Positions 26,647 to 63,304 are shown, counted from the first letter of the stretch. The stretch is DNA of 64,000 nucleotides from an uncultured Candidatus Saccharibacteria bacterium (GCA_964512925.1 CAZEKH010000003.1:16772-80771), one strand, 5' to 3'. Notes: generated by a model not told the origin, from the letters alone. Translations and numbers: made by a program.

Positions 26647-28730
26647 TATTGTATTCCTGCTTCAGTTAACACCCTTTTTCCAGCAGAATACCCGCCAATT
26701 TCAGCGCCTAAACAGAAAGAAAATTCGTATTTGCTCGCGTTGATTTTTTTGTAAATATATTTATTATCTTCTTCGCTACAAGTCCCGTCTGCTGGGGTTG
26801 GGCTTTCTGGCAAAATTCCTAGGTAGTTGGGGATAAAATTTTGAGGCATTCCATCTTGGCTATCTGGATATTTGTTGTAGTCATTAAAATACAACTCTAA
26901 AGCAGATGCAAATTGCCTTGCATCAGCAAGTCTTTTCGCGTCTCTGGATTTAGATCGCGCTAAGTTTAGGCTTTCAATAATATCAAAAGCATTTTCCGGA
27001 GCTGTTAGCTCTTGCGTTTTTCCAAAATCAAAATATTCAGACTCAATGGACAAAACCCCATCAAATTTAAGTTCCGAGACAATTTTTTTAATATTATCTT
27101 CCATTGAAGTATCTGTGATAAAATCGGGATTTACGCACTGTTCAGGAGTTCCTGGGCAAACTATATTCTCAATTCCTGCCGAACTTAGTTTTAAAACACC
27201 GGCTTTGTAGCCACCAGTATCAGCTCCCAGACAAAAAGTCATTTCATAATCACTATAAACTGTTTTCCCATTTAAACCCTTTAATTTTTGACCCTTTGGA
27301 GTGTACCAATAGTTATTAAAGTACTCAGTACATTGACCGGAAGTTTTTGGAGCTGTGGGAAAAATGCCTATATATAATGGACTTATGTCCACTGGCTTTC
27401 CGTTTTCCCCCGCAGGATAACCTTGGTTGTCGTTAAAATATAATTCGTATGCGGAAGCTAACTGTCTTACATCAGCCAGCCTTTTTGCGTCAGAATTTGT
27501 AAAATCATTTTCTGATGTTCGACTTGCTACCTCAGTAAGGGAAACCAAAGAAGGGAAATTACTCTCAAATTTTACTTTGTATAACCTACCGTCTTTAACC
27601 CCAACCCAAGTTTCCATTGTTTTTACTTCCATTTTATCAACCAGGGCATTTACGGCGGTTTTGATCTGCTGTACATCGCTTTCTTTTACAACTTCGCCTG
27701 AATCCTTGACAGCGCCACTGATTTTTTCAACGTATTTAGTGAAAGCATCCTTAATCCCCTGTTTATCCAGGGAATTTTTTAAGTGTAAAACTGATTGTTT
27801 CCCGATTTTTTCATTACCCAGACTTTTTTCAAGTTTAACAAAAGTGGAGTCAGACCAAATCTTGCTTAATTCTTCTTTTAGTGAGCTGTTTAAAATTGCG
27901 TTTACTTGTTTTGCACCCTTAGGTGAAGTAAGCATTTCTTTTTCGAGCTCATCAAAATCTATTTTCAACCATTCGGTTTTTCCCTCGGTATTTGCAATTC
28001 CCGCCAAAGCCGAGAAAATTGGGTTTTCACCGATATTGAAATATAAAACTTTTCCCAAGAAAAAATATTTAAAGGAAGTTGAAAAACTGCTATTGCCGCT
28101 GCCGGCTGTATATTTAACCACTGACGAAGACTTTGGATTTTGGCTGTCTGTGGTATCAACATAGTATTGTCCGTCAAAATCTAAAAAAACGTTGGAAAAA
28201 TTAAACAAAAGACCTGAAGTTGAGCTGGCGCTCGAAATACCGTTATCTTTGTAACTTATCTTAAATTTGTTGGAATAGACTGAGTCAAGCGGAGTTTGTT
28301 TATATTTATTCCAAATTTTTTGAGGCGACCCATAAATTACCGAATCTAAAAGTCCGAAAAAGTAAGCGGCTGCGCCTGTTGAAAGAAAAAAGACAAGCAA
28401 TATAAATAAAAGAATTTTGTTTATATTCCGACCTGTGTTTGCCGGGGCTTTGTAAGTTTGCCCTACTGTTGTTTGGGATGAAAGATTGCTTGAAACTTTT
28501 ATTTCTGCAGCGTTAGGGGTTCTGGCAGGGTTTTTCAAAGAAGTTTGTTCTAATTTCAGATCTTCATCTTTATTTGTAGCCGGCTTATGTTCATCCGCAA
28601 ACGCGTGTTTGACAGCCTCCTCTATTTCCACGCCCTCCCAGCCCTCGGTAATGAGGTTTTGTTTTATCTCAGCGGTGGTTAAACCGTGTTTGTGGGCTTC
28701 TACAACATAATTTACCAGATCTTTATTCAT
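26646..28730 (-). CDS. Membrane-anchored protein with two C-terminal type IV pilin-like (pseudopilin globular) domains
   Basis: 694 aa; one TM (ILLFILLVFFLSTGAAAYFF); two repeats resembling the post-helix region of CPR type IV pilins (DAKRLADVRQLASAYELYFNDNQGYP...FCLGADTGGY and DAKRLADARQFASALELYFNDYNKYP...FCLGAEIGGY). Confidence 0.55.
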   Translation of the reverse strand: MNKDLVNYVVEAHKHGLTTAEIKQNLITEGWEGVEIEEAVKHAFADEHKPATNKDEDLKLEQTSLKNPARTPNAAEIKVSSNLSSQTTVGQTYKAPANTGRNINKILLFILLVFFLSTGAAAYFFGLLDSVIYGSPQKIWNKYKQTPLDSVYSNKFKISYKDNGISSASSTSGLLFNFSNVFLDFDGQYYVDTTDSQNPKSSSVVKYTAGSGNSSFSTSFKYFFLGKVLYFNIGENPIFSALAGIANTEGKTEWLKIDFDELEKEMLTSPKGAKQVNAILNSSLKEELSKIWSDSTFVKLEKSLGNEKIGKQSVLHLKNSLDKQGIKDAFTKYVEKISGAVKDSGEVVKESDVQQIKTAVNALVDKMEVKTMETWVGVKDGRLYKVKFESNFPSLVSLTEVASRTSENDFTNSDAKRLADVRQLASAYELYFNDNQGYPAGENGKPVDISPLYIGIFPTAPKTSGQCTEYFNNYWYTPKGQKLKGLNGKTVYSDYEMTFCLGADTGGYKAGVLKLSSAGIENIVCPGTPEQCVNPDFITDTSMEDNIKKIVSELKFDGVLSIESEYFDFGKTQELTAPENAFDIIESLNLARSKSRDAKRLADARQFASALELYFNDYNKYPDSQDGMPQNFIPNYLGILPESPTPADGTCSEEDNKYIYKKINASKYEFSFCLGAEIGGYSAGKRVLTEAGIQ

Positions 28731-33574: not shown

Positions 33575-35162
33575 TTTTCTTCAACATTCTCCAAATTTCT
33601 TCCGCCTCGCGTAATTTTAGCTTAATTGCCACAAAAATGAAAGCCGCAATCCCGACCGCGCTTGAGGTGATGGATTGGAACAAAATTCCTGTTGCGGTTT
33701 GCGTATCCACCAAAGGCCCGATAATTTTTAGGGATAAATATGAAACTTCAGCCAAAATGAAGCTGGCGCAAATAATTTTTAGAGCGGAGCTTAAAATTTT
33801 TGCATTAAAAACTTTAAAATGAACGTCGGAAAAACCTTTCAGCCTTTGGCGGAGCAAAAAAAATAAAACCGTAAATCCGCTGATGCTGGCAATGGTAAAC
33901 GCCGCGGCTAAACCCGGTAGAGCAAAGGCATAAATTTTCGTAAAAACATAAGCGCAACAAATATTTATGGCAATAGCTATAGAGTTTGCAAAGACCGGAA
34001 TCTTAGTATTTTGCGTGGCATAAAAAGCTCTGGCAAATAAAGGCATTACTCCCTGTGAAAAGAGGCTAAAACAGAAAATGCCCAGCGCTGTAAAAGTTAA
34101 GCGGGTGTCATTCCAATCAAATTCTCCCCTGCCAAAACCGAGTCTTACAACATATGAGCGCATCAAAAACAGTAAAACGGAAATAGGAATTAAAAAAAAT
34201 AAAACTTTAATAGTGGAATCCTCCAGGGTTTTAAAAAATGCCGGAAAATTTCTTTCTGCGTAGTATTGGGACAAGGCAGGAAAAGCCGCAACAGAAACGG
34301 AATATCCAAAAATACCCAAAGGCACAGCAGCCAAGTCAAGGGCTAAATTGAATATTGAGATTGTGCCCGAAGTTAGAGTTGAGCCGACAATGGTTGCTAT
34401 TATTAAACTTACATTAGCCAGATCTATGCCGAAAATCCTAGGTAAAAACAGAAGAAAAATTTTTTTTAGAGCTGTCTCCTTAAACAGGATTATGGCTTGA
34501 TATTTATAGCCTAAACTTATGACCTGGGGTATTTGGGCGGCAATATGAAGAAGTGATCCCAAAATAACCCCTAACCCCCAGCCTAAAAATCCAAATTTTG
34601 GGAAAAGGTATAGAAATCCAAAAATAATCCCCAGATTATATAAGATGGGAGACAAGCTTGCGGCAAGAAACTTTTTTTGCGAATTCAAAATAGAGCTGAG
34701 TATGCTGGAAATGGTAAAAAGTACAGGTGTTATGAGCAGGAGCCTTGTTAAAAATACTGTACTCCAAAATTTTTCGCCATAAAATCCCGGCGTCAGCATT
34801 TTTACCAGTTCAGGAGCAAAAATGGCCAGGCTGCCGCAGATTACCACCATAACAGCAACTGCGCAATTCATTACAGAGTTGGCAATTTTATAGGCGTTTT
34901 TGGAATTTTTTTTAAATTCATCAACAAAAACCGGTATAAAGGAAACGGATAAAGTTCCCAAAATCATTAAATTAAAAACCAGATCGGGAATCCGAAAGGC
35001 GGCATAATAAATATCCAATTTGTCCCCTGGACCTAATAGAGAGGCAAATAACGCGCTTCTGACAAAGCCCGTCAGCCTGGAAAAAATGGTAAAAAAGCCG
35101 ATTAGAGCCGCAGCTTTTCCCACAGAAAAATTTTTTTCAAGATTTTTTAAAGTATTTATCAT
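33567..35162 (-). CDS. murJ: Lipid II flippase MurJ (MviN family)
   Basis: 531 aa, ~14 TM; MOP-superfamily pattern; 8-nt overlap with lepA. Confidence 0.88.
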   Translation of the reverse strand: MINTLKNLEKNFSVGKAAALIGFFTIFSRLTGFVRSALFASLLGPGDKLDIYYAAFRIPDLVFNLMILGTLSVSFIPVFVDEFKKNSKNAYKIANSVMNCAVAVMVVICGSLAIFAPELVKMLTPGFYGEKFWSTVFLTRLLLITPVLFTISSILSSILNSQKKFLAASLSPILYNLGIIFGFLYLFPKFGFLGWGLGVILGSLLHIAAQIPQVISLGYKYQAIILFKETALKKIFLLFLPRIFGIDLANVSLIIATIVGSTLTSGTISIFNLALDLAAVPLGIFGYSVSVAAFPALSQYYAERNFPAFFKTLEDSTIKVLFFLIPISVLLFLMRSYVVRLGFGRGEFDWNDTRLTFTALGIFCFSLFSQGVMPLFARAFYATQNTKIPVFANSIAIAINICCAYVFTKIYAFALPGLAAAFTIASISGFTVLFFLLRQRLKGFSDVHFKVFNAKILSSALKIICASFILAEVSYLSLKIIGPLVDTQTATGILFQSITSSAVGIAAFIFVAIKLKLREAEEIWRMLKKNE

Positions 35163-37306
35163 TTACTTGAAAATATTATGCCGAAAAATTTGTCAGATTC
35201 TTCTTCTGTTTCAAACGACAAGAAACTTGAATCCAATTTTTGCGGTTTAAAATTCATCCATTCTATGGTTTTACCTGGAAATTTAACCGCGTATGACAAC
35301 GTTTGTTTTTGAGCTCCCGGCTGTTTTTGCCATAACAGAGTAAAACGGTCTGTTAAAGCAAGTTTAAACGGCAGTTTGTATTTAATGTTTATAGATTTGC
35401 TCTCGCCACCTTTAAGATTCATCCAGTTTCCAAAATACGTCTTGTTCGCTTCTTTGCCGATCAGAGTGCCGGTTAAAACATCCTTAACCGCGGATTTTTC
35501 CCAAGCCAGAATGTCGCTGTCCGATTTAAAGGCATTGTCGCGGGGCATCTCTCCGATATTTTTATAGTCAAAGCCGGAAATTGATATTAATTCCGAATTT
35601 TCAGGGACAAAAACCCGTATAAACGATAAATTAAACGCGTATTCCAAGTTCGGCAGGTTATTTTTTCTTGTTATTTTTAAATTGTTTACTATACTTCCGT
35701 CTTCTAAAAATTCCGTTTCAAGTTCTAAGTTTTGCGCGATATGGAGATCGGTTTTTGTTCCGCCTAAATTCGCCGTCGCAACGCCTAAAAAATCCCTGTC
35801 AGTGGTATGAACAGAACCATCCCACCCGAATTCTTTAAAAGTATTTTGCATTTGTTGGTTTGGGCTGTAAAACATAATTTGTTTGCCAGCCGTTTGCTTC
35901 TGATAACTTTCTAGCGCCAGAAGCTTTTCAGAAACACTCAGAGTTGATATTTTTTCCAGCAAAATGGGAAATAAATCCGCTAGGATTTGTTTTGGAAGGT
36001 TTTCAGCCTTGTCTTGGCTTAAGGTTGATTGGGCTTCAATTTGTTCGGAAAAATTTTCTGCGTCTATATCCACATTTTGAGACCTAATACTAACAGTTCC
36101 GGTCAAATTTAAAAGGTCTTTTACCAATTCCGGAGTCATTGCGATTAAAAGATCCGGTGTTTCGTTACCTTCTTTCTCGTAAAATGAAATGGCTTTTTTA
36201 GCATTCGAGGGAAAATCAAAAAACCAGTTGCTATCACGCAAAAACCAACGGTTGTTAACGTTATATAAGGGGTGGGGAGGAAAAATTTCTTCAGTTAACT
36301 GGCCGTCCAAATCATAAATACTGCTGATTTTCTGCTGTTTGATTTGACCGTCTTCAATTAAAAATTTTCCATATGTCCCGATAAACCCGCCTCCGGGCCT
36401 GAGTTCGTTGTTATTTAAAAACAAAATCAATATATGTTTTTTACCGGTTAGGATCTGCCTGGTCAATCCAAACAACAAATTCAGGTTTTTAAAATCCTCA
36501 GAGGCTTGCGCGGTTATAAATTTTACTTTTAAAAACAGGTCTTGTTGGTTTTTGGGCAAAAAACCAACATTGACCTTGGACAGACTTAAGTCAGCCGCAA
36601 TGAAATACGCTTGAATTTTTTGAAAGGAAGGTTCTATTTTCGCAAATATTTCAGGGAGAGTCGGTTCCGAATACACGCCGCCGGGCGTAACTTTTATTTT
36701 AGAAATTTGTTCTAAAATTTGCGAACTTTCATAACCGGCCCCGGCCAAGGTTTTTGACGCATAAAGCAGATTTTCAGCCGTTTTTGATTGCGGTGTTAAA
36801 TCAAAAATTTTTTTTGAATCTTTAGAGGCTTGTTTTAAATCATTTTCAGCGCTGGAAAAAGTTTGAACAGCTTTGTAAAAACTTTTTTGGGCATTTACAG
36901 AATCTAAATTTGAAAGGTTTTTGCCTGCTATGCTTGTCTGGCTGATACCTAGTACGGCTTTTTCCTTAAGTCTATCTTTTACCGACAACCCATATGCGGC
37001 TAATCCGAAAAACTTCAAAGCGCCCAGGAGGGCAAAAGAAACTAGAATAAACAAACTAAAATTTGCCACAAATTTTAGTTTAAAAAATTCTTTGCTCCGT
37101 AGTCTTGCTGAATGTAAAAATCTGCGTCTTTCCCAATCCAAAAATTTAACCGTGCCGATAAACAGGTTTAAAACCATCAGGCCGAAAAAATAGCAAAGGT
37201 TAAAAATCGGTTTCCAAAAAAACGCAAAGCCGGACCCAGCTTTTAAATGGCTTGGTTTATAAAGCCCTTTTTTAAAATATAATCTGGTAATTTTTTTGTT
37301 GCTCAT
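35159..37306 (-). CDS. Large membrane-anchored hypothetical protein (DUF4012-like extracytoplasmic domain); start moved to the internal MSNKKI to give a 4-nt overlap with ftsW
   Basis: ORF 35159-37462; TM helices near the N-terminus, ~600-aa extracytoplasmic region (..RPGGGFIGTYGKFLIEDGQI..); occupies the dcw-cluster slot where murG often sits. Confidence 0.55.
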   Translation of the reverse strand: MSNKKITRLYFKKGLYKPSHLKAGSGFAFFWKPIFNLCYFFGLMVLNLFIGTVKFLDWERRRFLHSARLRSKEFFKLKFVANFSLFILVSFALLGALKFFGLAAYGLSVKDRLKEKAVLGISQTSIAGKNLSNLDSVNAQKSFYKAVQTFSSAENDLKQASKDSKKIFDLTPQSKTAENLLYASKTLAGAGYESSQILEQISKIKVTPGGVYSEPTLPEIFAKIEPSFQKIQAYFIAADLSLSKVNVGFLPKNQQDLFLKVKFITAQASEDFKNLNLLFGLTRQILTGKKHILILFLNNNELRPGGGFIGTYGKFLIEDGQIKQQKISSIYDLDGQLTEEIFPPHPLYNVNNRWFLRDSNWFFDFPSNAKKAISFYEKEGNETPDLLIAMTPELVKDLLNLTGTVSIRSQNVDIDAENFSEQIEAQSTLSQDKAENLPKQILADLFPILLEKISTLSVSEKLLALESYQKQTAGKQIMFYSPNQQMQNTFKEFGWDGSVHTTDRDFLGVATANLGGTKTDLHIAQNLELETEFLEDGSIVNNLKITRKNNLPNLEYAFNLSFIRVFVPENSELISISGFDYKNIGEMPRDNAFKSDSDILAWEKSAVKDVLTGTLIGKEANKTYFGNWMNLKGGESKSINIKYKLPFKLALTDRFTLLWQKQPGAQKQTLSYAVKFPGKTIEWMNFKPQKLDSSFLSFETEEESDKFFGIIFSSK

Positions 37307-38418
37307 TTGGAATTTTTCGCAATACTCATAATTATACCCGCCGCAAACATATTCATTATTAGCGCTGAACTTCCATAGCTGAAAAAAGGCAGAGGAATGC
37401 CCGTTAGCGGCACCAGTCTGAGCATAGCTGCTATATTGATTATAACTTGTATTGCAATCCAAGACATAATTCCAAATGCCAGCATTTTTCCAAAGCGGTC
37501 TTTTGCCGATTTCGCTATACTCGCCATACTTAAGATAAAAGCCGTATATAAAGCTAAAATGCCAGATGATCTTAAAAAACCCAACTCTTCGGCCGTAACC
37601 GCAAAAATTGAATCATTCATCACTTCGGGCAGATAATTGTGTTTCTGCCTTGAAAGCCCATATCCATAACCCCAAAATTTCCCTGATCCGACAGCCAACA
37701 TTGCTTGGTTGATGTGATAGCTGATGCCTTTTGGATCATCCTGAGGGTTTAAAAATGCGTTGATTCTGTTTGCGCGATAGGGTTCAAAATGCACAAAACC
37801 AGCCAGAAATACAATACTAGTCAAAGCAGACCAAAAAAAATATTTCCAACTTATACCTGCGGTAAAAAGCATAGAGGCGGCAATACCTCCTAAAACCAGA
37901 GCGCTGCCCAAGTCAGGCTGCCAAAGGATTAAAAAACAAAGCAACCCCGTAACAACAATCGGCGGGAGCAAGCCAAAATAAAAATCATTGATTCGGCTTT
38001 CTTTTTTTTCTGCCCAGGAAGCCAAATAAAATATCAAAGCTATTTTTGCAAGTTCTGAAGGCTGAAAAGTAAAAATACCCAAATTCAGCCAGCGCGTTGC
38101 GCCACCGGAACTGATACCCAAGCTGGAAATTTTGACAGCTAGAAGTGAAAGCAGGGCTACCACCACCACCAACCCGAGGTATTTATGCCAAAGTCTGTAT
38201 GGCACTTTCCAGCCGAGAAAAAAAGCCATTAAGCCTAAAATTAAGCCGAATGTAAACTGATGGATAATATAATAGGTTGTGGTGCCTGCCACCCGGTAAG
38301 AGTCAACGGTTGACGCGGAATATAGCGAAACAAAACCGATTGCTAAAAGTCCCGCCAGGGTAATTATAAATCCCCAGCTATTTTTTAACCCCGGGTTTGT
38401 GAGCGAATTTTTTTGCAT
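37303..38418 (-). CDS. ftsW: Peptidoglycan glycosyltransferase FtsW/RodA (SEDS family)
   Basis: 371 aa polytopic; conserved SEDS motifs (QPSELAKIALIFYLASW, QPDLGSALVL, GSGKFWGYGYGLSRQKHNYLPE). Confidence 0.9.
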   Translation of the reverse strand: MQKNSLTNPGLKNSWGFIITLAGLLAIGFVSLYSASTVDSYRVAGTTTYYIIHQFTFGLILGLMAFFLGWKVPYRLWHKYLGLVVVVALLSLLAVKISSLGISSGGATRWLNLGIFTFQPSELAKIALIFYLASWAEKKESRINDFYFGLLPPIVVTGLLCFLILWQPDLGSALVLGGIAASMLFTAGISWKYFFWSALTSIVFLAGFVHFEPYRANRINAFLNPQDDPKGISYHINQAMLAVGSGKFWGYGYGLSRQKHNYLPEVMNDSIFAVTAEELGFLRSSGILALYTAFILSMASIAKSAKDRFGKMLAFGIMSWIAIQVIINIAAMLRLVPLTGIPLPFFSYGSSALIMNMFAAGIIMSIAKNSK

Positions 38419-43883: not shown

Positions 43884-45638
43884 TTAAAACTTGCGGCTTT
43901 CTCCTGGCTTTAGAACAATTTGAGGGGTTTTTTGTTTTTCGGCAGGCACGGATTTTTCCGTGGTTTCAAAATCATCGCTAGCAATTTTATCCGGTTCGGA
44001 AATTTTTTGTTTTTGCAATTTTAACACTGATTCCCAAATTGGGTGCTGGGGTTTTTTTTGATGTTCGTTTTTGGTTTGGTTTGGCTTTTTATGTCGATCA
44101 TTTCGCTCGTTCTTTGACCATTTATTTTCACTTGATTCTTTTTTCGGGAGGTTTTTCGAATTATTGATGAAATTGCGCGTATCACTCAAAACTGGCTTGT
44201 TTAAAGCAGTTTTCACCAAAGTGTTTTCACTTTCCGGTTTTTTAACAATAACTTCAGAATCCAAATATTTGCCATTGTCAGTTGTTTCTGGTTCTAATTC
44301 GGAATCTTGAGACATTATATTTGCGCTATCTTGGTGAAATTCCGCGCCCATCCATTTGGAAATTTTCTCTTCAACTAAAGAAACTGAGTTACTGTACCTT
44401 TCTCTGGAAACTTTTATGACTTTTTCCGCATTACCCGTAAAATAGTCGGGGCTAGCGGGTATGGTGATGGCTGAAAAAGGTTCGCTGGCAACTCCGTTAA
44501 TCATTAATTTTAAAATTATATTGTATTTAGGCAGGTTTACCATATCGTTCGGGGTAAAAATCGGATCAAATTCAGTTTCAAGGTATTCCGCATCAGCCGC
44601 GCCGATTCTAAACAGAACTATGGTTCCCACGTTGCCGAAAATCGCATCCCTGACTTTAGTGCTTTTTTCCTGCTCCAGCTGGGCAATATACTGGTGGCCT
44701 ACGATCAAATTAAGCCTGTATTTTCTCGCCTCGCTCAATATTGTGGCAAAACTTTCCGTGGCAAAATTTTGAAACTCGTCTACATATAAATAAAAATCTT
44801 TTCTGTCTTCCTCGGCTATATCCGTCCTGGACATCGCAGCTAGTTGCAGTTTAGTTACAATCATAGCGCCAAGCAAGGCGCTGTTGTCTTCACCGACTTT
44901 TCCTTTGGATAAATCCATTATCAAAATTTTGCGGTTATCCATTATATCCCTCAAATCTATGGTGCTCTTGGGCTGACCTACGATGTTTCTAACAATTCCG
45001 GAAGATAAAAATTGTCCGACTTTATTTTGGATAGGCGCAATGGCTTCGGTGCGGTACTTTTCGTTATAATTGGCAAATTCATCTGTCCAAAAGGCGCGCA
45101 CCATCGGGTCTTTGATGTTGTCAACGATTTTTTTCCGATACTTTTTGTCGACATACATCCTGGTAATACCGAGCAAAGTGTTGCCAGGACTTTCCAGCAA
45201 GGCCAAGATTGTATTGTTTAAAATATATTCCATTCTGGCTGACCAGACATTTGACCAAATTTTGGTAAATACGCCCATAAGTCCGGAAGCGACTAAATGT
45301 TTGTATTTTGTATCCACAGCTTCCAAAATGTTGAAGGCTATCGGGTAATCCAAGTCAGCAGGGTTAAAATACACCACATCGTTAATCCTAGATGGAGGCA
45401 CAGAGTTTAAAATTCTTTGGATGGAATCCCCGTGCGGGTCTAAAAAAGCGATTCCGTGACCGTTGCGAATATCTTGAATAGCCATACTTTCCATCATTGA
45501 GGTTTTTCCCATCCCAGTTTTACCGATCAAGTACATATGACGTCTGCGGTCATCGGCTTTGATGCCAAAAGGCACTTCTTTGTTTCGGAAGTTGGTTTTA
45601 GCAAAAATAGTTATGGGTTCTTTTTTGGTTTCGTTCAT
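43884..45638 (-). CDS. VirD4/TraD/TraG-like (type IV coupling-protein-like) P-loop ATPase lacking its own TM segment; Lys/Glu-rich low-complexity C-terminal tail
   Basis: 584 aa; Walker A LIGKTGMGKTS, FLDPHGDS, Walker B FYLYVDEFQNF, then ARKYRLNLIVGHQYIAQL resembling the TraG-D_C/TrwB C-terminal region; last ~150 aa low complexity. Confidence 0.65.
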   Translation of the reverse strand: MNETKKEPITIFAKTNFRNKEVPFGIKADDRRRHMYLIGKTGMGKTSMMESMAIQDIRNGHGIAFLDPHGDSIQRILNSVPPSRINDVVYFNPADLDYPIAFNILEAVDTKYKHLVASGLMGVFTKIWSNVWSARMEYILNNTILALLESPGNTLLGITRMYVDKKYRKKIVDNIKDPMVRAFWTDEFANYNEKYRTEAIAPIQNKVGQFLSSGIVRNIVGQPKSTIDLRDIMDNRKILIMDLSKGKVGEDNSALLGAMIVTKLQLAAMSRTDIAEEDRKDFYLYVDEFQNFATESFATILSEARKYRLNLIVGHQYIAQLEQEKSTKVRDAIFGNVGTIVLFRIGAADAEYLETEFDPIFTPNDMVNLPKYNIILKLMINGVASEPFSAITIPASPDYFTGNAEKVIKVSRERYSNSVSLVEEKISKWMGAEFHQDSANIMSQDSELEPETTDNGKYLDSEVIVKKPESENTLVKTALNKPVLSDTRNFINNSKNLPKKESSENKWSKNERNDRHKKPNQTKNEHQKKPQHPIWESVLKLQKQKISEPDKIASDDFETTEKSVPAEKQKTPQIVLKPGESRKF

Positions 45639-45644
45639 AAAAAT

Positions 45645-46976
45645 CTAGTCTTCAGCTATCGGCAAATCCACCGGTGGCTGATATTTTTTACTTTCTGTTT
45701 TTTCTATAGCTGTTGCTACAGTAGCATCTTTTGCGGTTATTGGAAAATGGTAGAGAGTCGCCAGTTCTTCGGTGTTAAATATTTGCCCGCCTATACCAAT
45801 TAAAAAATCCCTGTCTTTATAACCTTTAAACATCTTTCTTTTTCTTTGCTTTAAAACATATTCCAGGTAAGGTCCTTCAAAATCTTTTGAAAACATATAA
45901 TCAACACCAGTCCAATGTTTTGTATCAGGTTTTAATTTGTTAGTCATCGCGCTACCCAAATTTCTAAATGCCCCAAAAAACATATTTCTTTTAGTCGGGT
46001 CATACTGGGCTTTGGGCGCGATATAAAGGATTCGAATTTTTGTTTTATATCCGGGTTTGCCAATTTTGCTTTCAATCAAACCAACCCGTGTTTTTTGTGT
46101 GTCAGTCAAACTCATCCAGTCATTTTTTTGGCTTTTTTCGGACGCTTCCCCGTGTCCGTGGCCTCCGCCGAGCAGGCTGTCTTTAAAACTAAAATTTGCC
46201 GCTTTATTTATTGGCGACATTAAAACATCGGAAAACTTCACATCGTGGGGAACATCTTCGCCTATCATTTTCTTTACTATCATTTCCCCTCTTGGCTTCC
46301 ATTCGTCATCATCAACCGGCCTGATAAGCAGTTGAATGCCAACAAATTCGTGCTCTTTGACTTTCATCAAAGATTCAAACAGATTGGACAAAGGATCAAT
46401 AACTGTTTCTTCAGCAGCTTGATGCTCAAAGTCTTTATATGTTTTAAGAGGTATTACCTCATCGTCGACGACTTTCAGTTCGGTGCCAAAAATTTCAACA
46501 TCGGAATTTTCCGGATCATAGCTGAAATTTTTCATATAATCTTCAATTTCTGTAATTTCAGCTTGCGGGTATTGGGAGTAAAAAGCGGCTTCCACCAAAT
46601 CTCTCATTTTTTTTGGTATCCTTAAAACAAAAGATACCTTGCCGCCTAAACTGATAAGTTCAAGACTGTACCAGAGCTGGCTTTGGCCTTCCACGTAGAT
46701 GTCAGCAAAAGTTTTACCGCCGTGCAGCGCGTGCATTTGACCAAATACGGTTTCAACAGCCAAGGTGCTGGCTAAATTGATTTTTGGAACTTTTATCTGT
46801 AAAAACTCCCACTCCTGCTGATGAATATACTGGTGCATAATTTCGTGCTTATAACTGAAGTACAGCATATAAATGACGCCTGCCACAAAAATCAGCCATC
46901 CATACCAATCAAAAAAGACTGTCCAAAAAATTTTGAACAATTCGCCAAACTCTGGAAATATTTGCGTAAAATCCAT
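45645..46976 (-). CDS. Membrane-anchored hypothetical protein, immediately upstream of the coupling-protein-like ATPase
   Basis: 443 aa; single N-terminal TM (WLIFVAGVIYMLYF) and a large soluble domain containing GGGHGHGE; 6-nt gap to the ATPase gene. Confidence 0.5.
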   Translation of the reverse strand: MDFTQIFPEFGELFKIFWTVFFDWYGWLIFVAGVIYMLYFSYKHEIMHQYIHQQEWEFLQIKVPKINLASTLAVETVFGQMHALHGGKTFADIYVEGQSQLWYSLELISLGGKVSFVLRIPKKMRDLVEAAFYSQYPQAEITEIEDYMKNFSYDPENSDVEIFGTELKVVDDEVIPLKTYKDFEHQAAEETVIDPLSNLFESLMKVKEHEFVGIQLLIRPVDDDEWKPRGEMIVKKMIGEDVPHDVKFSDVLMSPINKAANFSFKDSLLGGGHGHGEASEKSQKNDWMSLTDTQKTRVGLIESKIGKPGYKTKIRILYIAPKAQYDPTKRNMFFGAFRNLGSAMTNKLKPDTKHWTGVDYMFSKDFEGPYLEYVLKQRKRKMFKGYKDRDFLIGIGGQIFNTEELATLYHFPITAKDATVATAIEKTESKKYQPPVDLPIAED

Positions 46977-47015
46977 TTTAATTTTATTTCAAAATCGCTT
47001 TAAAAGCCCAGCCTT

Positions 47016-48104
47016 TTAGACTGCTTGAAAAGTATAGGAATTTTTCCCTACTTTTTTAAACAAAGCTTTATTGGACAATCCGACCAAGATTGTATTTTTC
47101 TTGACCATTCTTTTTTTCATAACTTCCGAAATAATTTGGTCTTTTTCCATAGGTTTTCCGGCTTTTTTTAAAACTTCAATAATTACATCCGCAACAACGC
47201 CAGGCTTAAAACCCCACTCTGAAAGAGCATATATGCCTCTGCCTATCAAAATAAATCTTGAATCTTTTATCAGTTCGTTATGCACGGTTTCTTTGTAAGC
47301 CACTCTCTCGTCAAATTTGGCTTCGTTAATCATATCCGTGATTTTAGAGTAATGTTCCGGCTGTTTGTGATATTTCATAACCAAAAAAGCTTTATCGCCC
47401 ACATCTTTTGGACGAATTTCTTTCCAGGATTTAATCCCCCAGTGCCCGTAAACATTTTTTTCTATTTCAATCGCCAAATGCAAAAAATTTAAAAGCACTT
47501 TATCCGGCAACTTTTCTTGGTGTTCCAAATAAAATTCGGTTTTTTTGAAATGTTCTAAAAATTCTTCGGATTTTAATGGTTGGTTGTTTTGGCTTAAAAT
47601 ATTTTTTCCAGTTTCAACAGCTTTATGTAAAATATTTTCATCAAACAATACCGCAACCCAGCTTTTTTTATAATTTTGATTGATAAAATACTCCAATTCC
47701 TCAACAAGATGAAGTAAAAAAATAATTGAATTTTTTTCAACCTCATCTTTTAAATTCAAATGCAAAAACAGATTTTCTTCAGCGATAATTCTGCCGTGCT
47801 CGTTGATGATATTGAGCAAAAAATCTTTTGTAGCGTTGAATGAGGCTACTTTAGAGCTGTTTTTACGCAAGTTTTTTATAATATCTTTTTCTATCTGCCT
47901 TACTCTTTCGCGGGTCAGATTGTGTTGTTTTCCGATTGCTGCTAAAGTAATAATTTTGTTTCCCGCCAAGCCATACCTATTTTGCAATATTTGTTTTTCC
48001 CGATCTTTTAGCAAATCTAAAACATCCCTCACAATTTCCGAGGGCTTAAATTGTTTCAATGTTTCAGTATTTTTTGTGCTGATAATCGCGTCTAAAATTC
48101 CCAT
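47016..48104 (-). CDS. Sigma-70 region 4-like HTH domain protein with a C-terminal HARE-HTH-like domain
   Basis: 362 aa; N-terminal KDREKQILQNRYGLAGNKIITLAAIGKQHNLTRERVRQIEKDIIKNLRK resembles RpoD region 4; C-terminal ..HYSKITDMINEAKFDERVAYKETVHNELIKDSRFILIGRGIYALSEW is wHTH-like. Confidence 0.55.
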   Translation of the reverse strand: MGILDAIISTKNTETLKQFKPSEIVRDVLDLLKDREKQILQNRYGLAGNKIITLAAIGKQHNLTRERVRQIEKDIIKNLRKNSSKVASFNATKDFLLNIINEHGRIIAEENLFLHLNLKDEVEKNSIIFLLHLVEELEYFINQNYKKSWVAVLFDENILHKAVETGKNILSQNNQPLKSEEFLEHFKKTEFYLEHQEKLPDKVLLNFLHLAIEIEKNVYGHWGIKSWKEIRPKDVGDKAFLVMKYHKQPEHYSKITDMINEAKFDERVAYKETVHNELIKDSRFILIGRGIYALSEWGFKPGVVADVIIEVLKKAGKPMEKDQIISEVMKKRMVKKNTILVGLSNKALFKKVGKNSYTFQAV

Positions 48105-48186
48105 ATACTATTTAGTAAAATCAATTTCTCACAGTATAGCATAAAGATTATTTATTGTCAATTTATGGTATAATCAATAAATATTT

Positions 48187-48214
48187 AAAATCCCTCTTGT
48201 ATAAGAGGGATTTT
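48187..48214. terminator. Rho-independent terminator downstream of secF
   Basis: aaaaTCCCTCTTgtatAAGAGGGAtttt perfect hairpin. Confidence 0.6.
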
Positions 48215-48224
48215 AAAAACAATT

Positions 48225-58603: not shown

Positions 58604-61600
58604 CTACTTGATAATTCTCGGATCATTTTTTACCATAATTGGTAAAACCGGTCCTTTTTTAATGGCTGAAATATCGGTTTGATTGGCTTTAACAATAGGC
58701 AAGTTTGTTGTTTGCCTATTACTGTTTAATACTTCTAAAGAAGGTGCCGGTATGTATCCTTCCGGATGAAAATAATAAACGCTTTTTCCTATTCTTACCC
58801 AGCTTCCCCAAGGATGTTCCGTCCTGGGAGAAATAAAACCATAAACTTCGGGTAACTTATAACCGGTCAAGTCAGCTTTGATTACATTTTTTAAAGAGTA
58901 TCCCAGACCAGAAAATATAGAAAAGGAAGGAAATGGTATTTTACTGTTTTCATAAATATAATAAACAGTTTTGTTTTGAATAGCTAAAGATCCGGTTGGC
59001 AAGTATATGGACGGTTTAGGATTATAATTCACCGGATCGGCTTTTGTCTCAACAAGCCTGGCAAAAATCTCCATTTTTGTGAATTTACCCGGATTGTCAT
59101 TTATGATTTTAATATCGTTTTTAACCGTGCTTTGGTACGCTAACAGACTGTTTAGACTGTCAAAAGGGTATAACCCTTCAATTTTTACCAAATAAACAGT
59201 GGGATATCCGGAAAATTTCAAAACCTCGCCTTCTCTGCTGTTAAATGGCAATACTATTAAACTTAAATTTGGATTATTGCTGTTTACAGGCGGATTATTT
59301 TCCTCTGGGGCAGGGGTGGGAGTTGGAGTAGTACTTATGATTTGCGGATTAGAAGTTGGTGTTGGGGTGGGAGTTAGAGTATTAGGAACACCGCTACCAC
59401 CAGAAGAAACCTGGGTTGGAGTTGGTGTTGAATTGTTTTCCGGGGTCGGGGTAGGTGAAGCGGTGGGCGTTGGGGTTGGAGTTGGTGTAGGTGTTACAGA
59501 GGGTTCAGATAAATTCATCTGGTTATTTTCATAAGCAATTCCAAGCTGGCTGGACACGACTGAATTTAGTGAATTTAAATATTCAACTTTATAGTAAGCA
59601 ATTCGAAGGGGTATCAAAGGCAAATAAATTGTACAAGAAGTTGCGCAACTTGCATTTGCATACGAATCAGAATTTTCAAAAAAATACGTTTTATATGTGG
59701 CAGTGGAAGTTGCGGTCGCTACGCAAGATTCCCTTCTACCGTAACAAAAATAATCCGTTGGGCTTCCGTTTTCAACATAACCAAATTTTACCCTTGCCTG
59801 CGTGATGCCCATACCTGTTGGCGCTGTTAGGCTTAAGGCTGCCGGAATAAATGTTTTTCTGTCAATTCCGTCAGCTGTATAAGCAGGCGGATTTTTTATC
59901 ATCCAAATATCAGTCCTCTGCCCATTACCCCAGGTAATACCGGACATAAGCCAAGATCCGTCCGGGATCGGGGTTGCGTTAGAGTATGTGTCTGCCCAAT
60001 TGTATTTTTCCAATTTTTGTGTTAGGTGAACAGGCGAAGACGACCCTGAAGAAGCATAATATTTTGCAATGCCCAAAGAAGCGGCGGGCATAGAAAAGAA
60101 GCACGGCTTGGTGTAATCATAAGACCAACCGCAGTAACCGTCCAAGTAAAGCCCCGGCGCGTTAAAATATACGTCTCCAGCCGATGATCCGGCATAACAT
60201 TCACCAGCCTGATAAACATAACAAAATTTCCAATTGTCAGAATCAGCTGAGGTTATAGAAGAGTTGTATCCGCTAATATCTCCGAGTAATTTGCGACCGG
60301 CAAAAAACACCTGGGGCAAAGTTTTGTAACTTGTCGGAGTGGTTTTGTTTGCCGAGGCTATTTTATATAAATTGCCTGAAATTTGAGTAACGCCGCTTTG
60401 TGTCCACAAACCCCAATCCCCGCCTGATTGTCCGGCCAAGGGGGTTCCATCAAAATAAAAATTAGCTTCTTCGCCAGTGGCATTTACCTGCCTCCAAGAT
60501 GGATGGGTTTGGATATATTGCCCGGCCAGGCTGGTATTGTTTACATCTATCCTGTCAAAACCATAAACTCCGCGTTGAAGCGTGCTGGAAACCGCTGCTA
60601 AAGTTGTTGTTGACCAATTCGGCCATATATCATTTCTAAACGTGTTATATACGCCGTCATATGAGGACATAATAACACCTAAACTAATATCGCCGTGCTG
60701 CGCGGATTGAAGCGTTCTAAATGGCAGCATATTGTCTCCGTGCAAATCATCTCCTTTCCACGCAACATAACCGGCTCCTGTGCACGACTGACATGCCATT
60801 TCAATCTGCCATGTCCCAGAGAATGAGCGTTTTCCAAATGGATGCCAGGGATAATCCAAAGTTGCGGAATGATATTTTTTATAATCCCTTAAAATTACCC
60901 ATTGGTTTCCGCCTAACGATTTGACAAACAATATGCCTTCCTTGGTTCCCCCGCTGTCTGCCGCCTGAGCCTGGTCGCCAACCTGGATATCCATTGTGGG
61001 CGTGGTTGCAGCTGAATTTAGCTGGACTTTTGAAGCATCCCAAGTGCAATCTAAAAGATTTGAGCTTTCCCATGAATTCGGGTTTGCTTTACAAGGCTCT
61101 CCCTGAACAGTGATTGTCGCGCAGTTAGAGCCAGTAGCTCCATCATCCTTATAAACCTGATCTATATCCGAAGGGCAAGTTTCTGTATAAGTGTTAGACA
61201 TTGTGGAAGTGCCGGTTGAACCCACCTGAGTAACGCCGACTTTGTAAGTATCGCCCTGCAAATCTTTGGAAACCCAAAAATTGTATTGATCATTGCCTGC
61301 ATTTTGAAAAGTGTGTGCACCCGACCACCTATGAGGAGCTTTTGAAAAACTGTCAGAGCCTGAAGTTAAAAGACCGGTTGCGGCATTGACAGCGATTAAA
61401 TACGAAGGGTAATCTTGCCCCGCCCAACAACCTACATATATATAAGTTCCTTGCTGAGAGTATGAGCAATAAGGATATCTTGCTGTGTCATAACCATTTG
61501 GATCATTCGCTTCAGCCTGCTGCCAAAGACCTGTTCCTGACGAAGGCTTTGTTAATCTAACTATAGTTTTATATAGCATTGAACCGTCAGAGGTAGTTGA

Positions 61601-63304
61601 AGTCTGATAATTTCCTGTGTAAGTGATTTCCGTAAGGCTAGGGCCATATCCATTTTCAGATGCTTCTCCTACATAACATAAAAACTTGTTCGGATTGGTC
61701 GGATGAAACATCAAATTTGCCCCACAGTCTCCTACTGCTGTCTGGTCAATAGTTGTTGTTGGTGAGAAATAATTAAAAGGAACTTGTATAAAACCCAAAT
61801 ACACGCTTCTTTCCAAAGAAGGTATCCATTCAAAAACCTGACTATTTTTCTTGCACATATAGGCAGTCACCCCTAAATTCGGGTCAGTAAACGAATTGGT
61901 ATTACAGGGAAAATACGAACCATTTGCAGGAGTTTGAAATTGGTCAGAAGCAGCATATCGCATTTTAACTCCATCAACACTCAAAGTGTCTGAAGCGGCG
62001 CTACTTTTTCGAATTAACAGTCCTGTGTTGTTTGCTAAATATGAAGCGCCTGTCTGAGTGCCGGCAGATGAAGACAAAGTCAAAGATTTATTGTGATTAT
62101 AGGAGCTGATAGTATATTCGACTCCGCCAATAGTAATTTTCGTTCCCGCTGTCCAAACCGGGGGAAATGTGTTTCCAGAAATCCAGGTTACAGAAGTGCC
62201 TGAAGTATTTACAGTTCCGGTTTTTGTAGCCAAATCTGGTCTACCTGGGGGGTTTGGAAATCCAACGCCTTTCCAGCCATTTAGCATTGGGGTAGCAAAA
62301 TTGGAAGGAAAAGTTGTTGTTGAGGCTGAGCTGCCAACCGTAATGGATTTCCAGGCGGTTGAACAGGAAATTCCATTAACCGAAATGCAAATTTGAGCAT
62401 TTTGATCATCTGGATTATATGCTTTGATCTGAACTTCAATATCATCTAAAGATTTGCCGATAGTTGTCCATTTTGAATCATTTTGGCAATTACTGTTTGG
62501 GCAAATGGTATCAAATCTTACAAATAAAGGAGAAGTTGTGGATGTTACTGTGGCGTACGAACCATCTATTAAATTTCCATTTGAATCAGAAGACCAGCCG
62601 CCGTTTGGCGCATATGCTACAAGCGAGCTGGTAGCAGTAGTGGTACTTACACCGTAAGTTTGGGGGCGAGTAAAAGGCACCAGTTTCACTCCGGTGTGAG
62701 GGTCATAAAAACTGAAAGATGAGGAGGAAAAATCAATTGTAGGGAAAGCATAATTATCCGGCGCGTTGGAATCATATATTTGCGGCTCGCCGAAATCCGA
62801 CGGTTGCAAGGTATCCGTAGTAAAAGTTCCTGTAGAAATATCTCCGTCGCAATTTATGCGAAAATAGTGCAGAGTATTGTTTTGTAAAGCCCTGGAATAA
62901 TAATTCCCATCGACTCCGGCCTCAGCCTTCCTTTTTCCGATTACAATCATTCTTGACGTGGAGGTGGCCAAACTGGTATCTCTTAAGATATCTATATTTG
63001 AATTGGAAAACAAAGATCCGTTTACATCATTGACGACTGGGGTGTATGAAGAACTTTCACTGACCTCCAAAGTACAGGCTGTTAAATCATCAGTTTCATA
63101 ACTGAGCACGGCCTGAGTGGGCGTGGTTAAAGATACGGTAATAGAACTGTTTAAGCCCAAAATTTGGCCGATTTTGCGACCAATTTGAGTTTCCGAAACC
63201 AGAATTGCGGAACAAGAAACCGCCCCAAATATAAAAATCGCCATTAAAATGATAAAATAATGGTGATTTTTATTATTCAGATAAATTTTGAGCTGATTTA
63301 GCAT
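58604..63304 (-). CDS. Giant (1566 aa) secreted/surface protein with an N-terminal signal-anchor, a large Ser/Thr/Gly/Asn/Tyr/Trp-rich beta-type ectodomain, a Pro-Thr linker and a C-terminal domain
   Basis: Single uninterrupted ORF; N-terminal hydrophobic segment FIILMAIFIFGAVSCSA; PTPTPTPTPTASPTPTPENNSTPTPT...TPTPTPAPEENNPP linker; no family recognised. Confidence 0.7.
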   Translation of the reverse strand: MLNQLKIYLNNKNHHYFIILMAIFIFGAVSCSAILVSETQIGRKIGQILGLNSSITVSLTTPTQAVLSYETDDLTACTLEVSESSSYTPVVNDVNGSLFSNSNIDILRDTSLATSTSRMIVIGKRKAEAGVDGNYYSRALQNNTLHYFRINCDGDISTGTFTTDTLQPSDFGEPQIYDSNAPDNYAFPTIDFSSSSFSFYDPHTGVKLVPFTRPQTYGVSTTTATSSLVAYAPNGGWSSDSNGNLIDGSYATVTSTTSPLFVRFDTICPNSNCQNDSKWTTIGKSLDDIEVQIKAYNPDDQNAQICISVNGISCSTAWKSITVGSSASTTTFPSNFATPMLNGWKGVGFPNPPGRPDLATKTGTVNTSGTSVTWISGNTFPPVWTAGTKITIGGVEYTISSYNHNKSLTLSSSAGTQTGASYLANNTGLLIRKSSAASDTLSVDGVKMRYAASDQFQTPANGSYFPCNTNSFTDPNLGVTAYMCKKNSQVFEWIPSLERSVYLGFIQVPFNYFSPTTTIDQTAVGDCGANLMFHPTNPNKFLCYVGEASENGYGPSLTEITYTGNYQTSTTSDGSMLYKTIVRLTKPSSGTGLWQQAEANDPNGYDTARYPYCSYSQQGTYIYVGCWAGQDYPSYLIAVNAATGLLTSGSDSFSKAPHRWSGAHTFQNAGNDQYNFWVSKDLQGDTYKVGVTQVGSTGTSTMSNTYTETCPSDIDQVYKDDGATGSNCATITVQGEPCKANPNSWESSNLLDCTWDASKVQLNSAATTPTMDIQVGDQAQAADSGGTKEGILFVKSLGGNQWVILRDYKKYHSATLDYPWHPFGKRSFSGTWQIEMACQSCTGAGYVAWKGDDLHGDNMLPFRTLQSAQHGDISLGVIMSSYDGVYNTFRNDIWPNWSTTTLAAVSSTLQRGVYGFDRIDVNNTSLAGQYIQTHPSWRQVNATGEEANFYFDGTPLAGQSGGDWGLWTQSGVTQISGNLYKIASANKTTPTSYKTLPQVFFAGRKLLGDISGYNSSITSADSDNWKFCYVYQAGECYAGSSAGDVYFNAPGLYLDGYCGWSYDYTKPCFFSMPAASLGIAKYYASSGSSSPVHLTQKLEKYNWADTYSNATPIPDGSWLMSGITWGNGQRTDIWMIKNPPAYTADGIDRKTFIPAALSLTAPTGMGITQARVKFGYVENGSPTDYFCYGRRESCVATATSTATYKTYFFENSDSYANASCATSCTIYLPLIPLRIAYYKVEYLNSLNSVVSSQLGIAYENNQMNLSEPSVTPTPTPTPTPTASPTPTPENNSTPTPTQVSSGGSGVPNTLTPTPTPTSNPQIISTTPTPTPAPEENNPPVNSNNPNLSLIVLPFNSREGEVLKFSGYPTVYLVKIEGLYPFDSLNSLLAYQSTVKNDIKIINDNPGKFTKMEIFARLVETKADPVNYNPKPSIYLPTGSLAIQNKTVYYIYENSKIPFPSFSIFSGLGYSLKNVIKADLTGYKLPEVYGFISPRTEHPWGSWVRIGKSVYYFHPEGYIPAPSLEVLNSNRQTTNLPIVKANQTDISAIKKGPVLPIMVKNDPRIIK
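59270..59500. repeat. Low-complexity GGTGTTGG/GGAGTTGG-type nucleotide repeats encoding the Pro-Thr linker of the giant protein
   Basis: Reiterated ggggtgggagttggagt..gttggtgttggggtgggagtt..ggggttggagttggtgtaggtgtt read directly; coding, not a CRISPR array. Confidence 0.75.

Follow-up and report, generated by a model that had tools for sequence, protein, structure and literature searches.

Why does a core bacterial chromosome encode a motor that resembles a type IV coupling protein (T4CP) with no genes for conjugation at its side? The question is raised by three genes in a 64,000-nucleotide (nt) stretch of DNA, here called the window, that was deposited as part of an uncultured Candidatus Saccharibacteria bacterium (GCA_964512925.1, CAZEKH010000003.1:16772-80771). 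We found the three open reading frames (ORFs), all on the minus strand, where the first-pass annotation had placed them, and they are transcribed in the order helix-turn-helix (HTH) gene, DUF8128 gene and ATPase gene (Table 1). Because all three are on the minus strand, the HTH gene, previously described as downstream, is the first of the trio and lies upstream. The HTH and DUF8128 genes are 39 nt apart, and only 6 nt ('attttt') separate the TAG stop codon of the DUF8128 gene (45647-45645) from the ATG start codon of the ATPase gene (45638). Taken as a whole, we consider it fairly probable that the locus is a chromosomal, vertically inherited operon of Patescibacteria (Doudnabacteria-like) that encodes a two-piece T4CP and a DNA-binding protein. 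On this view, a motor once used for plasmid transfer seems to have been turned into a core component of the cell.

The ATPase is a T4CP by Pfam profile, PDB sequence and fold, and is neither a HerA nor an FtsK protein. Four Pfam families match it above their gathering cut-offs, led by TrwB_AAD_bind (50.6 bits, cut-off 20.5) and followed by DUF87 (36.5 bits), TraG-D_C (32.3 bits) and T4SS-DNA_transf (24.6 bits). FtsK_SpoIIIE has no Pfam match in the protein, and neither have the VirB4 signatures AAA_10, CagE (CagE_TrbE_VirB) and TraC. Its profile-level resemblance to HerA is confined to the generic DUF87 match (the HerA central domain, 7e-9), and no nuclease gene adjoins it. TrwB_AAD_bind aligns to amino acids (aa) 28-348 and TraG-D_C to aa 283-352, which places the latter inside the nucleotide-binding domain and not at the C-terminus, as had first been thought. 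TraD and VirD4-like models of NCBIfam all scored below threshold. The closest PDB sequences are DotL and TrwB, and the Walker B motif aligns to the Walker B region of both. Foldseek with an AlphaFold2 model of aa 1-450 returned DotL (1.8e-11), Cag-beta (8e-11) and TrwB (1e-10), then HerA (~1e-9) and VirB4 (1.6e-7). The insertion between the Walker motifs is presumed from the model to be an all-alpha domain. Core identity is 79-87% among 35 close homologues.

The protein thus has the P-loop nucleotide-binding domain of a T4CP; what it lacks is the N-terminal transmembrane domain (TMD) on the same polypeptide, and the anchor sits on the DUF8128 protein. A hydropathy scan found no hydrophobic 19-mer in the ATPase. 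Pfam, PDB sequence, Foldseek and hydropathy therefore agree with the first-pass description of a T4CP-like ATPase that has Walker A and B motifs and no transmembrane segment of its own. Another hallmark of a T4CP, linkage to relaxase or type IV secretion system (T4SS) genes for mating-pair formation (MPF), was not seen among the window ORFs scanned.

Beyond the core, the ATPase ends in a low-complexity tail (K 24, E 16, S 13 and N 12 in the last 139 aa), and tblastn matches outside the close relatives stop at about aa 430-450. The tail had been singled out as unusual, but a variable C-terminal domain is a recognised T4CP feature (PMC7434980), and it is the conserved tip that deserves notice. 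A motif of the 'L.PGE..KF' type (regular expression xG[EDQKR]..x[FLI], composed after inspection of the data) occurs within the last 14 aa of 37 of the 65 CPR (Candidate Phyla Radiation) orthologues; shuffled tails gave a mean of 0.18. Nine further orthologues among the 65 end in a different motif, 'LRKxLxE'. As a separate observation, PADLOC matches the ATPase to mad8 of the MADS defence system (3.3e-16), which, together with 138 Pseudomonas plasmid records that hold ATPase relatives, suggests that soluble T4CP-like ATPases have been recruited into defence systems elsewhere.

The 443-aa product of the middle gene belongs to PF26449 (DUF8128) in the precomputed Pfam annotation, and most of the homologues listed for it carry the same label; neither PF26449 nor DUF8128 turned up any paper in a literature search. 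Its only hydrophobic segment lies near the N-terminus, and together with the 6-nt gap this bears out the earlier description of a single-pass membrane protein encoded directly upstream of the ATPase. An N-terminal hydrophobic segment is found in 45 of 56 family members. Across the family, the net charge is -0.6 before and +1.1 after this segment, a bias that suggests a topology with the N-terminus outside and the C-terminus in the cytoplasm. The AlphaFold2 model (predicted local distance difference test score, pLDDT, 75.8; predicted template modelling score 0.72) has helices over aa 8-53. When this model was searched against the PDB with Foldseek, the top 13 hits were all TrwK/VirB4 of R388 (E = 2.9e-5 to 2.3e-3, probability 0.95-1.0), and the next hits were unrelated proteins with E values of 0.02 or higher. 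The C-terminal end carries a junction motif that is shared with fused homologues (Table 1), and the invariant columns of the family are E403, E404, A406, H410, P435 and P439. The motif is followed by a conserved disordered end, KKxQPPxxLP, which in the fused homologues corresponds to the linker into the ATPase domain.

These fused homologues came to light on plasmids. A tblastn search with the ATPase matched 503 plasmid records, and in several of them the match covers the C-terminal half of a much longer protein. Two DUF8128 profiles, one of 56 sequences and a narrower one of 29, were aligned to such proteins with hhalign. The larger profile matched Niallia WP_338473401.1 (867 aa) at residues 46-313 (98.7%, E = 4e-16), the region directly N-terminal to the P-loop, and was collinear with the N-terminus of Embleya WP_331738717.1 (812 aa) over 292 columns (E = 8e-4); the narrower one matched Peribacillus WP_051387410.1 (870 aa; 93.9%). 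All three proteins have an 'EELAxLxHxP' motif just before the ATPase domain. The Niallia and Peribacillus proteins, annotated as 'DUF87', have a primase gene on one side and a Replic_Relax (relaxase-like) gene on the other, and conjugal-transfer genes, TcpE and an AAA_10 VirB4 (E = 1.7e-118) come next on these plasmids. On the Embleya plasmid, the order is PrgI (VirB3-like), a VirB4-like ATPase, the 812-aa T4CP, Replic_Relax and an NlpC/P60 hydrolase.

Split versions also exist outside the CPR. On the haloarchaeal plasmid pHTS138 (Haloterrigena), a separate 399-aa ORF, WP_204749458.1, overlaps the start of a T4CP-like gene and is a DUF8128 homologue (hhalign 96.3%, E = 1.5e-9, 308 columns). 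The 1034-aa product of that T4CP-like gene, WP_204749459.1, shares 26% identity with the window ATPase across 415 aa (E = 5e-38). A tblastn search with DUF8128 found two megaplasmid loci that adjoin ATPase relatives, in Priestia (fused) and Pontibacillus (split). The idea of a split VirD4-like architecture, put forward in the first-pass annotation, rests on homology and goes beyond adjacency, because DUF8128 matches both the N-domains of single-chain plasmid T4CPs and the separate haloarchaeal partner. By these homologies, DUF8128 and the ATPase constitute one evolutionary module, which occurs as a single chain on plasmids of Bacillaceae and actinomycetes and in two pieces on a haloarchaeal plasmid, on the Pontibacillus plasmid and in CPR genomes.

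Three of these plasmid relatives have further features. In Priestia megaterium pFDU301A (L088, 8929-12588) and the Pontibacillus plasmid (L086, 8713-12696), which carry DUF8128-like and T4CP-like genes, the ATPase coding sequence is matched by tblastn in three to four pieces at the same relative positions in both; the breaks could be inteins, insertions or parallel decay. The closest non-CPR relative of the ATPase is on a Sulfitobacter mediterraneus plasmid (L082, 7938-9125; 38-39% identity, E ~1e-93 to 1e-96). It is a solitary soluble protein of 395 aa whose gene adjoins recombinase and transposase genes and has no DUF8128-like gene in its vicinity.

The trio is conserved in hundreds of CPR species. 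DUF8128 was confirmed in at least 560 GTDB species-representative genomes (560 of the 600 pattern matches listed), and among the matches listed all informative labels are Patescibacteria (CPR): Doudna-, Moranii-, Komeili-, Sung-, Terry-, Magasanik-, Azam-, Harrison-, Nealson- and Uhrbacteria, Paceibacterota and Minisyncoccales. In a synteny sample of 80 retrieved loci, selected by DUF8128 similarity so that the adjacency figures are conditional on that choice, the ATPase gene lies within 1 kb downstream of DUF8128 in 73 of 78 testable loci and the HTH gene within 1 kb upstream in 69 of 79. The median gaps are 23.5 nt (DUF8128-ATPase) and 35 nt (HTH-DUF8128), and at 51 of the 80 loci the HTH gene has secF upstream. 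Neither of the two findings named by the first-pass annotation as telling against its view was made: T4CP signatures, and not those of HerA, FtsK or another P-loop family, identify the ATPase, and its neighbours are kept together.

Median identity to the window proteins at the 60 most distant loci is 62% for the ATPase, 46% for SecD, 43% for SecF, 35% for the HTH protein and 31% for DUF8128. The ATPase is therefore under stronger constraint than a component of the Sec machinery, and purifying selection on the motor is very strong. This level of conservation is unlike that of plasmid T4CPs, for which sequence similarity is lower than expected (PMC7434980). The trio is vertically inherited in Patescibacteria. 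A search with the DUF8128 profile returned representatives of 2545 clusters at 50% identity, 795 of them at E values of 1e-30 or lower, and none of the best 150 of these 2545 is long enough for an ATPase fusion. No DUF8128 relative was found in 2.9 million IMG/VR viral contigs, and a phage origin of the module is accordingly not supported.

No relaxase, VirB4 or integrase gene was found among the window ORFs scanned, and no relaxase-like or VirB4 gene in the CPR loci. A Pfam scan of the window covered 33 of the 42 ORFs of at least 150 aa (most of the other nine are identifiable from their translations) and gave no match to T4SS, relaxase or integrase families. In 955 kb of CPR loci, VirB4, Replic_Relax, PrgI and TcpE gave no tblastn hit with distant queries of low sensitivity. 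The first-pass annotation had called the ATPase an orphan. This stands for the window and for flanks of about 6 kb in the relatives, where no relaxase or T4SS genes were found, and it holds for that scope alone: in the passages of PMC12102498 considered here, VirB4 is reported elsewhere in about 80% of the genomes.

Two side observations concern the conserved loci. Where DUF8128 occurs without the ATPase, the paralogue stands directly after dnaJ (L044, L067) or after a small membrane protein (L069, L072), and in L047 the HTH and DUF8128 genes are kept while nusA stands where the ATPase gene would be. Many metagenome-assembled genomes of the TPA_asm type are labelled 'uncultured Candidatus Saccharibacteria' or 'Gammaproteobacteria', and their DUF8128 is 45-60% identical to the Doudnabacteria type, with synteny kept. 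These labels look like default or mis-assigned names; we judged them unreliable and did not use them for taxonomy.

The protein encoded by the first gene combines sigma-70 region 4 with a HARE-HTH domain, as the first-pass annotation had recognised (Table 1). Pfam reports HARE-HTH in two stretches, the second weaker and C-terminal of the first, and every PDB sequence match is to sigma region 4. The combination is stable, with Sigma70_r4 in 51 of 51 orthologues and HARE-HTH in 48 of 51. The protein was rejected as a sigma-70 factor (it has no region 2, and all NCBIfam sigma models are far below their cut-offs) and as the RNA polymerase delta subunit RpoE (TIGR04567, 29.8 bits against a cut-off of 42). 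In RpoE, an N-terminal HARE-HTH domain precedes an acidic tail, whereas here HARE-HTH is C-terminal and the acidic tail is absent. A match to MzaA (PADLOC 1.7e-12, NCBIfam 4e-16) involves generic sigma region 4 only. The sigma-like gene near the Pontibacillus DUF8128/ATPase pair was compared as well and is not homologous, so the HTH linkage is specific to the CPR.

How the three proteins might work together can be sketched from these data. DUF8128 would provide a single N-terminal membrane anchor and a cytoplasmic alpha/beta globular domain with a predicted VirB4-like fold. The ATPase, a soluble TrwB/VirD4-type motor, would dock as a hexamer on the membrane-bound DUF8128, with the 'EELAxxYHFP...KKxQPPxxLP' end of DUF8128 and conserved N-terminal strands of the ATPase as the putative contact; such docking would rebuild a single-chain T4CP non-covalently. 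ATP hydrolysis could then drive recruitment or translocation of a substrate, protein or DNA, at the membrane. The C-terminus of TraD binds TraM, and by analogy the tip of the disordered ATPase tail may be a docking peptide for a partner. The HTH protein might regulate the operon, or tether DNA or RNA polymerase to the motor. Most likely, the pair would serve as substrate receptor or motor for a monoderm-type (MPF-FATA-like) T4SS encoded elsewhere, after domestication of a conjugative coupling protein.

Several points weigh against this interpretation. No T4SS gene is linked to the operon, and we therefore only infer its coupling to a T4SS. In the passages of PMC12102498 considered here, T4CP homologues occur in more Patescibacteria genomes (96%) than VirB4 does (80%), and the T4CP homologue of S. 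epibionticum, possibly an orthologue of the window family, is dispensable. Both observations allow a T4SS-independent role. The synteny sample was chosen by similarity to DUF8128, and five of its loci carry a solitary DUF8128 paralogue or, once, the HTH and DUF8128 genes without the ATPase gene. The model of the ATPase is of moderate confidence (pLDDT 61.9), and its insertion is poorly modelled (pLDDT mostly below 55) even as the Pfam alignment runs through it. As for DUF8128, TrwK is matched with low TM-scores (0.33-0.36) and in a region of VirB4 that is not readable from the output, so the VirB4 likeness is a fold-level lead only. No sequence-level link to VirB4, TrsD or a PDB entry was found: the DUF8128 profile showed no similarity to the VirB4-like proteins of Embleya and Niallia, to TrsD, TrsE and TrsJ of pSK41, or to the N-terminal parts of the T4CP-like proteins of Sulfolobus pMGB1 and Bradyrhizobium, and only noise against all PDB sequences.

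The tight linkage of the HTH gene would also suit an autonomous membrane DNA pump, independent of any T4SS and comparable to FtsK/SpoIIIE or to the Ced-type importers of archaea. Its three parts would be DUF8128 as the anchor, the ATPase as the hexameric motor and the HARE-HTH protein as the DNA reader, for DNA uptake, export or chromosome handling. We regard this as unlikely, although it is the main alternative; the role in DNA uptake or translocation suggested by the first-pass annotation is likewise speculative. The parts list parallels that of FtsK (anchor, motor, winged-helix domain), T4CPs bind DNA non-specifically (PMC7434980), Patescibacteria genomes with T4CP homologues outnumber those with VirB4 (in the considered passages of PMC12102498), and NCBIfam gives a weak match to the CedD DNA-translocating ATPase (E = 6e-6), which covers the P-loop region only. 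Division and cell-wall genes neighbour the locus in Doudnabacteria, but the downstream cell-wall context is not conserved outside that group. DNA is no more than a putative substrate, and sigma region 4 with HARE-HTH also fits an RNA-polymerase-associated or regulatory protein. A pump would, moreover, have no obvious gap to fill, because ftsK is annotated in TM7x (PMC10768705) and ComEC-based competence is documented (PMC12857230); the TM7x gene also led us to drop the idea that the module is a general replacement for a missing FtsK. More doubtful still is an extended version of the domestication reading, a CPR-wide coupling machine without any T4SS, in which a hexamer guided by the sigma region 4/HARE-HTH protein would move DNA across or along the membrane (e.g., host DNA import or chromosome handling) and the N-domain would be an ancestral VirB4-like module that links the origins of both T4SS ATPases.

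That TrwK/VirB4 proteins are the sole significant PDB fold matches of the DUF8128 model could mean that the pair is a second VirB4-like assembly ATPase, which energises T4SS or pilus biogenesis instead of recruiting substrate. In the passages of PMC12102498 considered here, Patescibacteria TrsD is described as a separate protein that remotely resembles the VirB4 N-terminus and adjoins VirB4, so split ATPases would be a theme in these bacteria. We nevertheless think this improbable: the ATPase lacks AAA_10, CagE and TraC, its Foldseek match to VirB4 is four orders of magnitude weaker than those to T4CPs, the DUF8128 profile shows no similarity to TrsD or VirB4 N-termini, and the fused relatives coexist with bona fide AAA_10 VirB4 proteins and hold the T4CP position by the relaxase-like gene. 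A still smaller chance attaches to a role in anti-phage defence, with a soluble T4CP/HerA-like ATPase at the heart of the module as in MADS (mad8) or MZA. The PADLOC matches of the ATPase to mad8 and of the HTH protein to MzaA (the latter also in NCBIfam), and the ATPase relatives in Pseudomonas plasmid records, point that way, but the MzaA matches reflect generic sigma region 4, further MADS or MZA components are missing and the neighbours are housekeeping genes. The fixed position after secDF in hundreds of species, and an ATPase more conserved than SecD, are the opposite of patchy, fast-evolving defence islands, and on these grounds we disfavour a role in defence. The least credible proposal is a HerA/FtsK-type repair or recombination helicase, or else the decaying remnant of an integrated conjugative element; here the DUF87 match, the HerA structures in Foldseek and the plasmid relatives are outweighed by the higher scores of the T4CP families, by the lack of NurA, nuclease, integrase or relaxase genes nearby, and by intact reading frames, invariant catalytic motifs, native base composition and synteny across CPR classes.

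A domesticated two-piece T4CP has partial precedents. Orphan T4CPs in Patescibacteria and T4CPs without a TMD are both already known. For the former, Quinonero-Coronel et al. 2025 (PMC12102498), in the passages considered here, count 5,713 VirD4-type T4CP homologues in 2,918 of 3,035 Patescibacteria genomes (96%), only 148 of them near virB4, and report VirB4 in 2,417 genomes (~80%) and relaxases in 103. The same passages nest the patescibacterial T4SS within the monoderm/archaeal MPF-FATA class, describe the T4SS genes of S. epibionticum as essential and its T4CP homologue as not, propose exaptation of the T4CP, and leave open the cargo of the T4SS and the role of the near-universal, unlinked T4CP homologues. 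An essential T4SS cluster without recognisable coupling or relaxase proteins was described by Wang et al. 2023 (PMC10633639), and before the T4SS of Patescibacteria, no such system had been shown to be essential to its own carrier (PMC12857230). The homologues surveyed in PMC12102498 are probably the same genes as the window ATPase family or include that family as a subset; the passages considered make no mention of a DUF8128 partner, the split/fused relation, the HTH gene, the secDF synteny or the level of conservation.

For the TMD-less type, a 'T4CP lacking TMD' subfamily with small membrane partners is a recognised class (PMC7434980), and TraJ/TraI of pIP501 and TrsK/TrsJ of pSK41 embody the same concept of a soluble ATPase with a separate membrane recruiter (PMC7434980, PMC12857230). 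Partners of the TraI/TrsJ type differ from DUF8128 in having about 150 aa, two transmembrane segments and no globular domain, against 443 aa with a globular domain. The window ATPase falls outside the CD1115/TrsK lineage (NF045973, 42 bits against a cut-off of 250), and its similarity to TrsK is marginal (BLASTP E = 0.004 over 79 aa). Canonical VirD4, TrwB and TraD share with it the nucleotide-binding fold, the motifs, a predicted Walker A-B insertion and a variable C-terminal tail at an identity of about 15%, but in them a two-helix TMD of the same chain directly precedes the nucleotide-binding domain, and relaxase and T4SS genes are linked. The single-chain T4CPs of Niallia, Peribacillus and Embleya resemble the trio in having a DUF8128-like N-domain followed by a TrwB/TraG-D_C ATPase (26-30% ATPase identity). 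They differ in being one polypeptide, plasmid-borne and encoded beside Replic_Relax, a VirB3-like gene and an AAA_10 VirB4, whereas the trio has two genes for these parts, lies on the core chromosome with no mobilisation (MOB) or MPF genes nearby, and has an HTH gene attached. The pHTS138 pair is split like the trio, with the DUF8128 homologue immediately upstream of the T4CP gene, but it lies on a conjugative-type plasmid beside another large conjugal transfer protein, has no sigma region 4/HARE-HTH gene, and its T4CP has a C-terminal extension of about 500 aa. In position, DUF8128 relates to the ATPase as the N-domain of VirB4 does to its C-terminal ATPase domain, and as TrsD does to VirB4. 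The identity of the DUF8128 partner, the C-terminal tip motif and the HTH-DUF8128-ATPase operon that follows secDF appear to be new, and we found no description of the homology of DUF8128 to fused T4CP N-domains, of its VirB4-like fold or of the conservation level of the motor.

Table 1. Features of the three-gene locus and its upstream flank, in window positions; ORF starts are those of the longest ORF.
Feature	Position in protein	Coordinates	Strand	Basis or remark
Gene 1, HTH protein	362 aa	47016-48104	minus	longest ORF; sigma-70 region 4 and HARE-HTH
Sigma70_r4 domain	aa 28-81	47862-48023	minus	Pfam E = 1e-12
HARE-HTH winged-helix domain	aa 238-297	47214-47393	minus	Pfam E = 9e-11
Gene 2, DUF8128 membrane partner	443 aa	45645-46976	minus	longest ORF; PF26449
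Hydrophobic membrane anchor	about aa 20-42	46851-46919	minus	hydropathy; sole hydrophobic segment
Junction motif EELATLYHFP	aa 403-412	45741-45770	minus	invariant; shared with fused homologues
Gene 3, soluble T4CP-type ATPase	584 aa	43884-45638	minus	longest ORF; stop codon within coordinates
Walker A GKTGMGKT	aa 39-46	45501-45524	minus	invariant in 36 homologues
Helical insertion between Walker A and B (~130 aa)	about aa 98-225	44964-45347	minus	AlphaFold2, pLDDT mostly below 55
Walker B YLYVDE	aa 283-288	44775-44792	minus	invariant in 36 homologues; inside TraG-D_C match
Low-complexity Lys/Glu/Ser/Asn tail	aa 446-584	43887-44303	minus	sequence not conserved
C-terminal tip motif VLKPGESRKF	aa 575-584	43887-43916	minus	motif search in CPR orthologues
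Promoter-like TTGACA-17-TATACT, TG before -10		48133-48161	minus	11/12 matches; consensus match only
Terminator-like hairpin, 15 pairs then T-rich run		48184-48217	minus	just 3' of secF stop; consensus match only

The flanks of the trio hold signals that may set it apart as a transcription unit. A hairpin that looks terminator-like by consensus match separates secDF from the trio, and a promoter-like site lies 28 nt upstream of the HTH start codon. Together, the hairpin after secF and the near-consensus site before the HTH gene suggest that the trio may own a promoter. The region overall has no excess of promoter-like sites (16 were found and 18.9 expected), which makes this candidate no more than suggestive.

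The window itself is core chromosome, with nearly all genes on one strand, and the guanine-plus-cytosine content of the trio is like that of its surroundings. It encodes gyrB, pheS, an aspartyl/lysyl-type tRNA synthetase, a UvrD/PD-(D/E)XK helicase-nuclease, rmuC, F-type ATP synthase genes and lepA, as well as murJ, ftsW, murD, mraY, a D-Ala-D-Ala carboxypeptidase, thioredoxin, secDF, an aminopeptidase, a Sua5-type protein and secA. A 767-aa DUF4012 protein (35159-37462) adjoins murJ and ftsW. Five of the 33 scanned ORFs have no Pfam match. Minus-strand ORFs without a Pfam family include those at 58604-63304 (1566 aa), 6425-7918 (497 aa) and 26646-28730 (694 aa), the last with a weak T2SSG pilin-like stretch near the C-terminus only (E = 0.0025).

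Two tRNA regions on the minus strand are also of interest. At 15576-15879, a tRNA gene carries a group I intron of about 228 nt in the anticodon loop (Rfam RF00028, 64.1 bits, 15648-15867), and ARAGORN with introns allowed reports one tRNA across the intron. The splice point decides between the isotypes Ser(cga) and Cys(gca), which leaves the identity of this tRNA ambiguous; its neighbours are tRNA-Met and tRNA-Asp. At 25594-25741, two tRNA-Thr(CGT) calls overlap (25594-25668 and 25666-25741); the former, at 31.9 bits, is barely over the Rfam threshold and could be a tandem copy that has degenerated.

Much of bacterial diversity belongs to the Patescibacteria, and the locus offers several points of access to their biology. 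A domain of unknown function receives a role by sequence homology: DUF8128 is the N-terminal membrane-anchoring half of a T4CP subfamily. The compact three-gene operon defined here is open to deletion, tagging and modelling, and both proteins offer a candidate docking element, DUF8128 in its junction motif and the ATPase in its C-terminal tip motif. The VirB4-like fold of the T4CP N-domain, if confirmed, would bear on the divergence of the two T4SS ATPases. If the motor should turn out to be independent of a T4SS, these ultra-small bacteria would have in it a new core translocase, for DNA or for protein.

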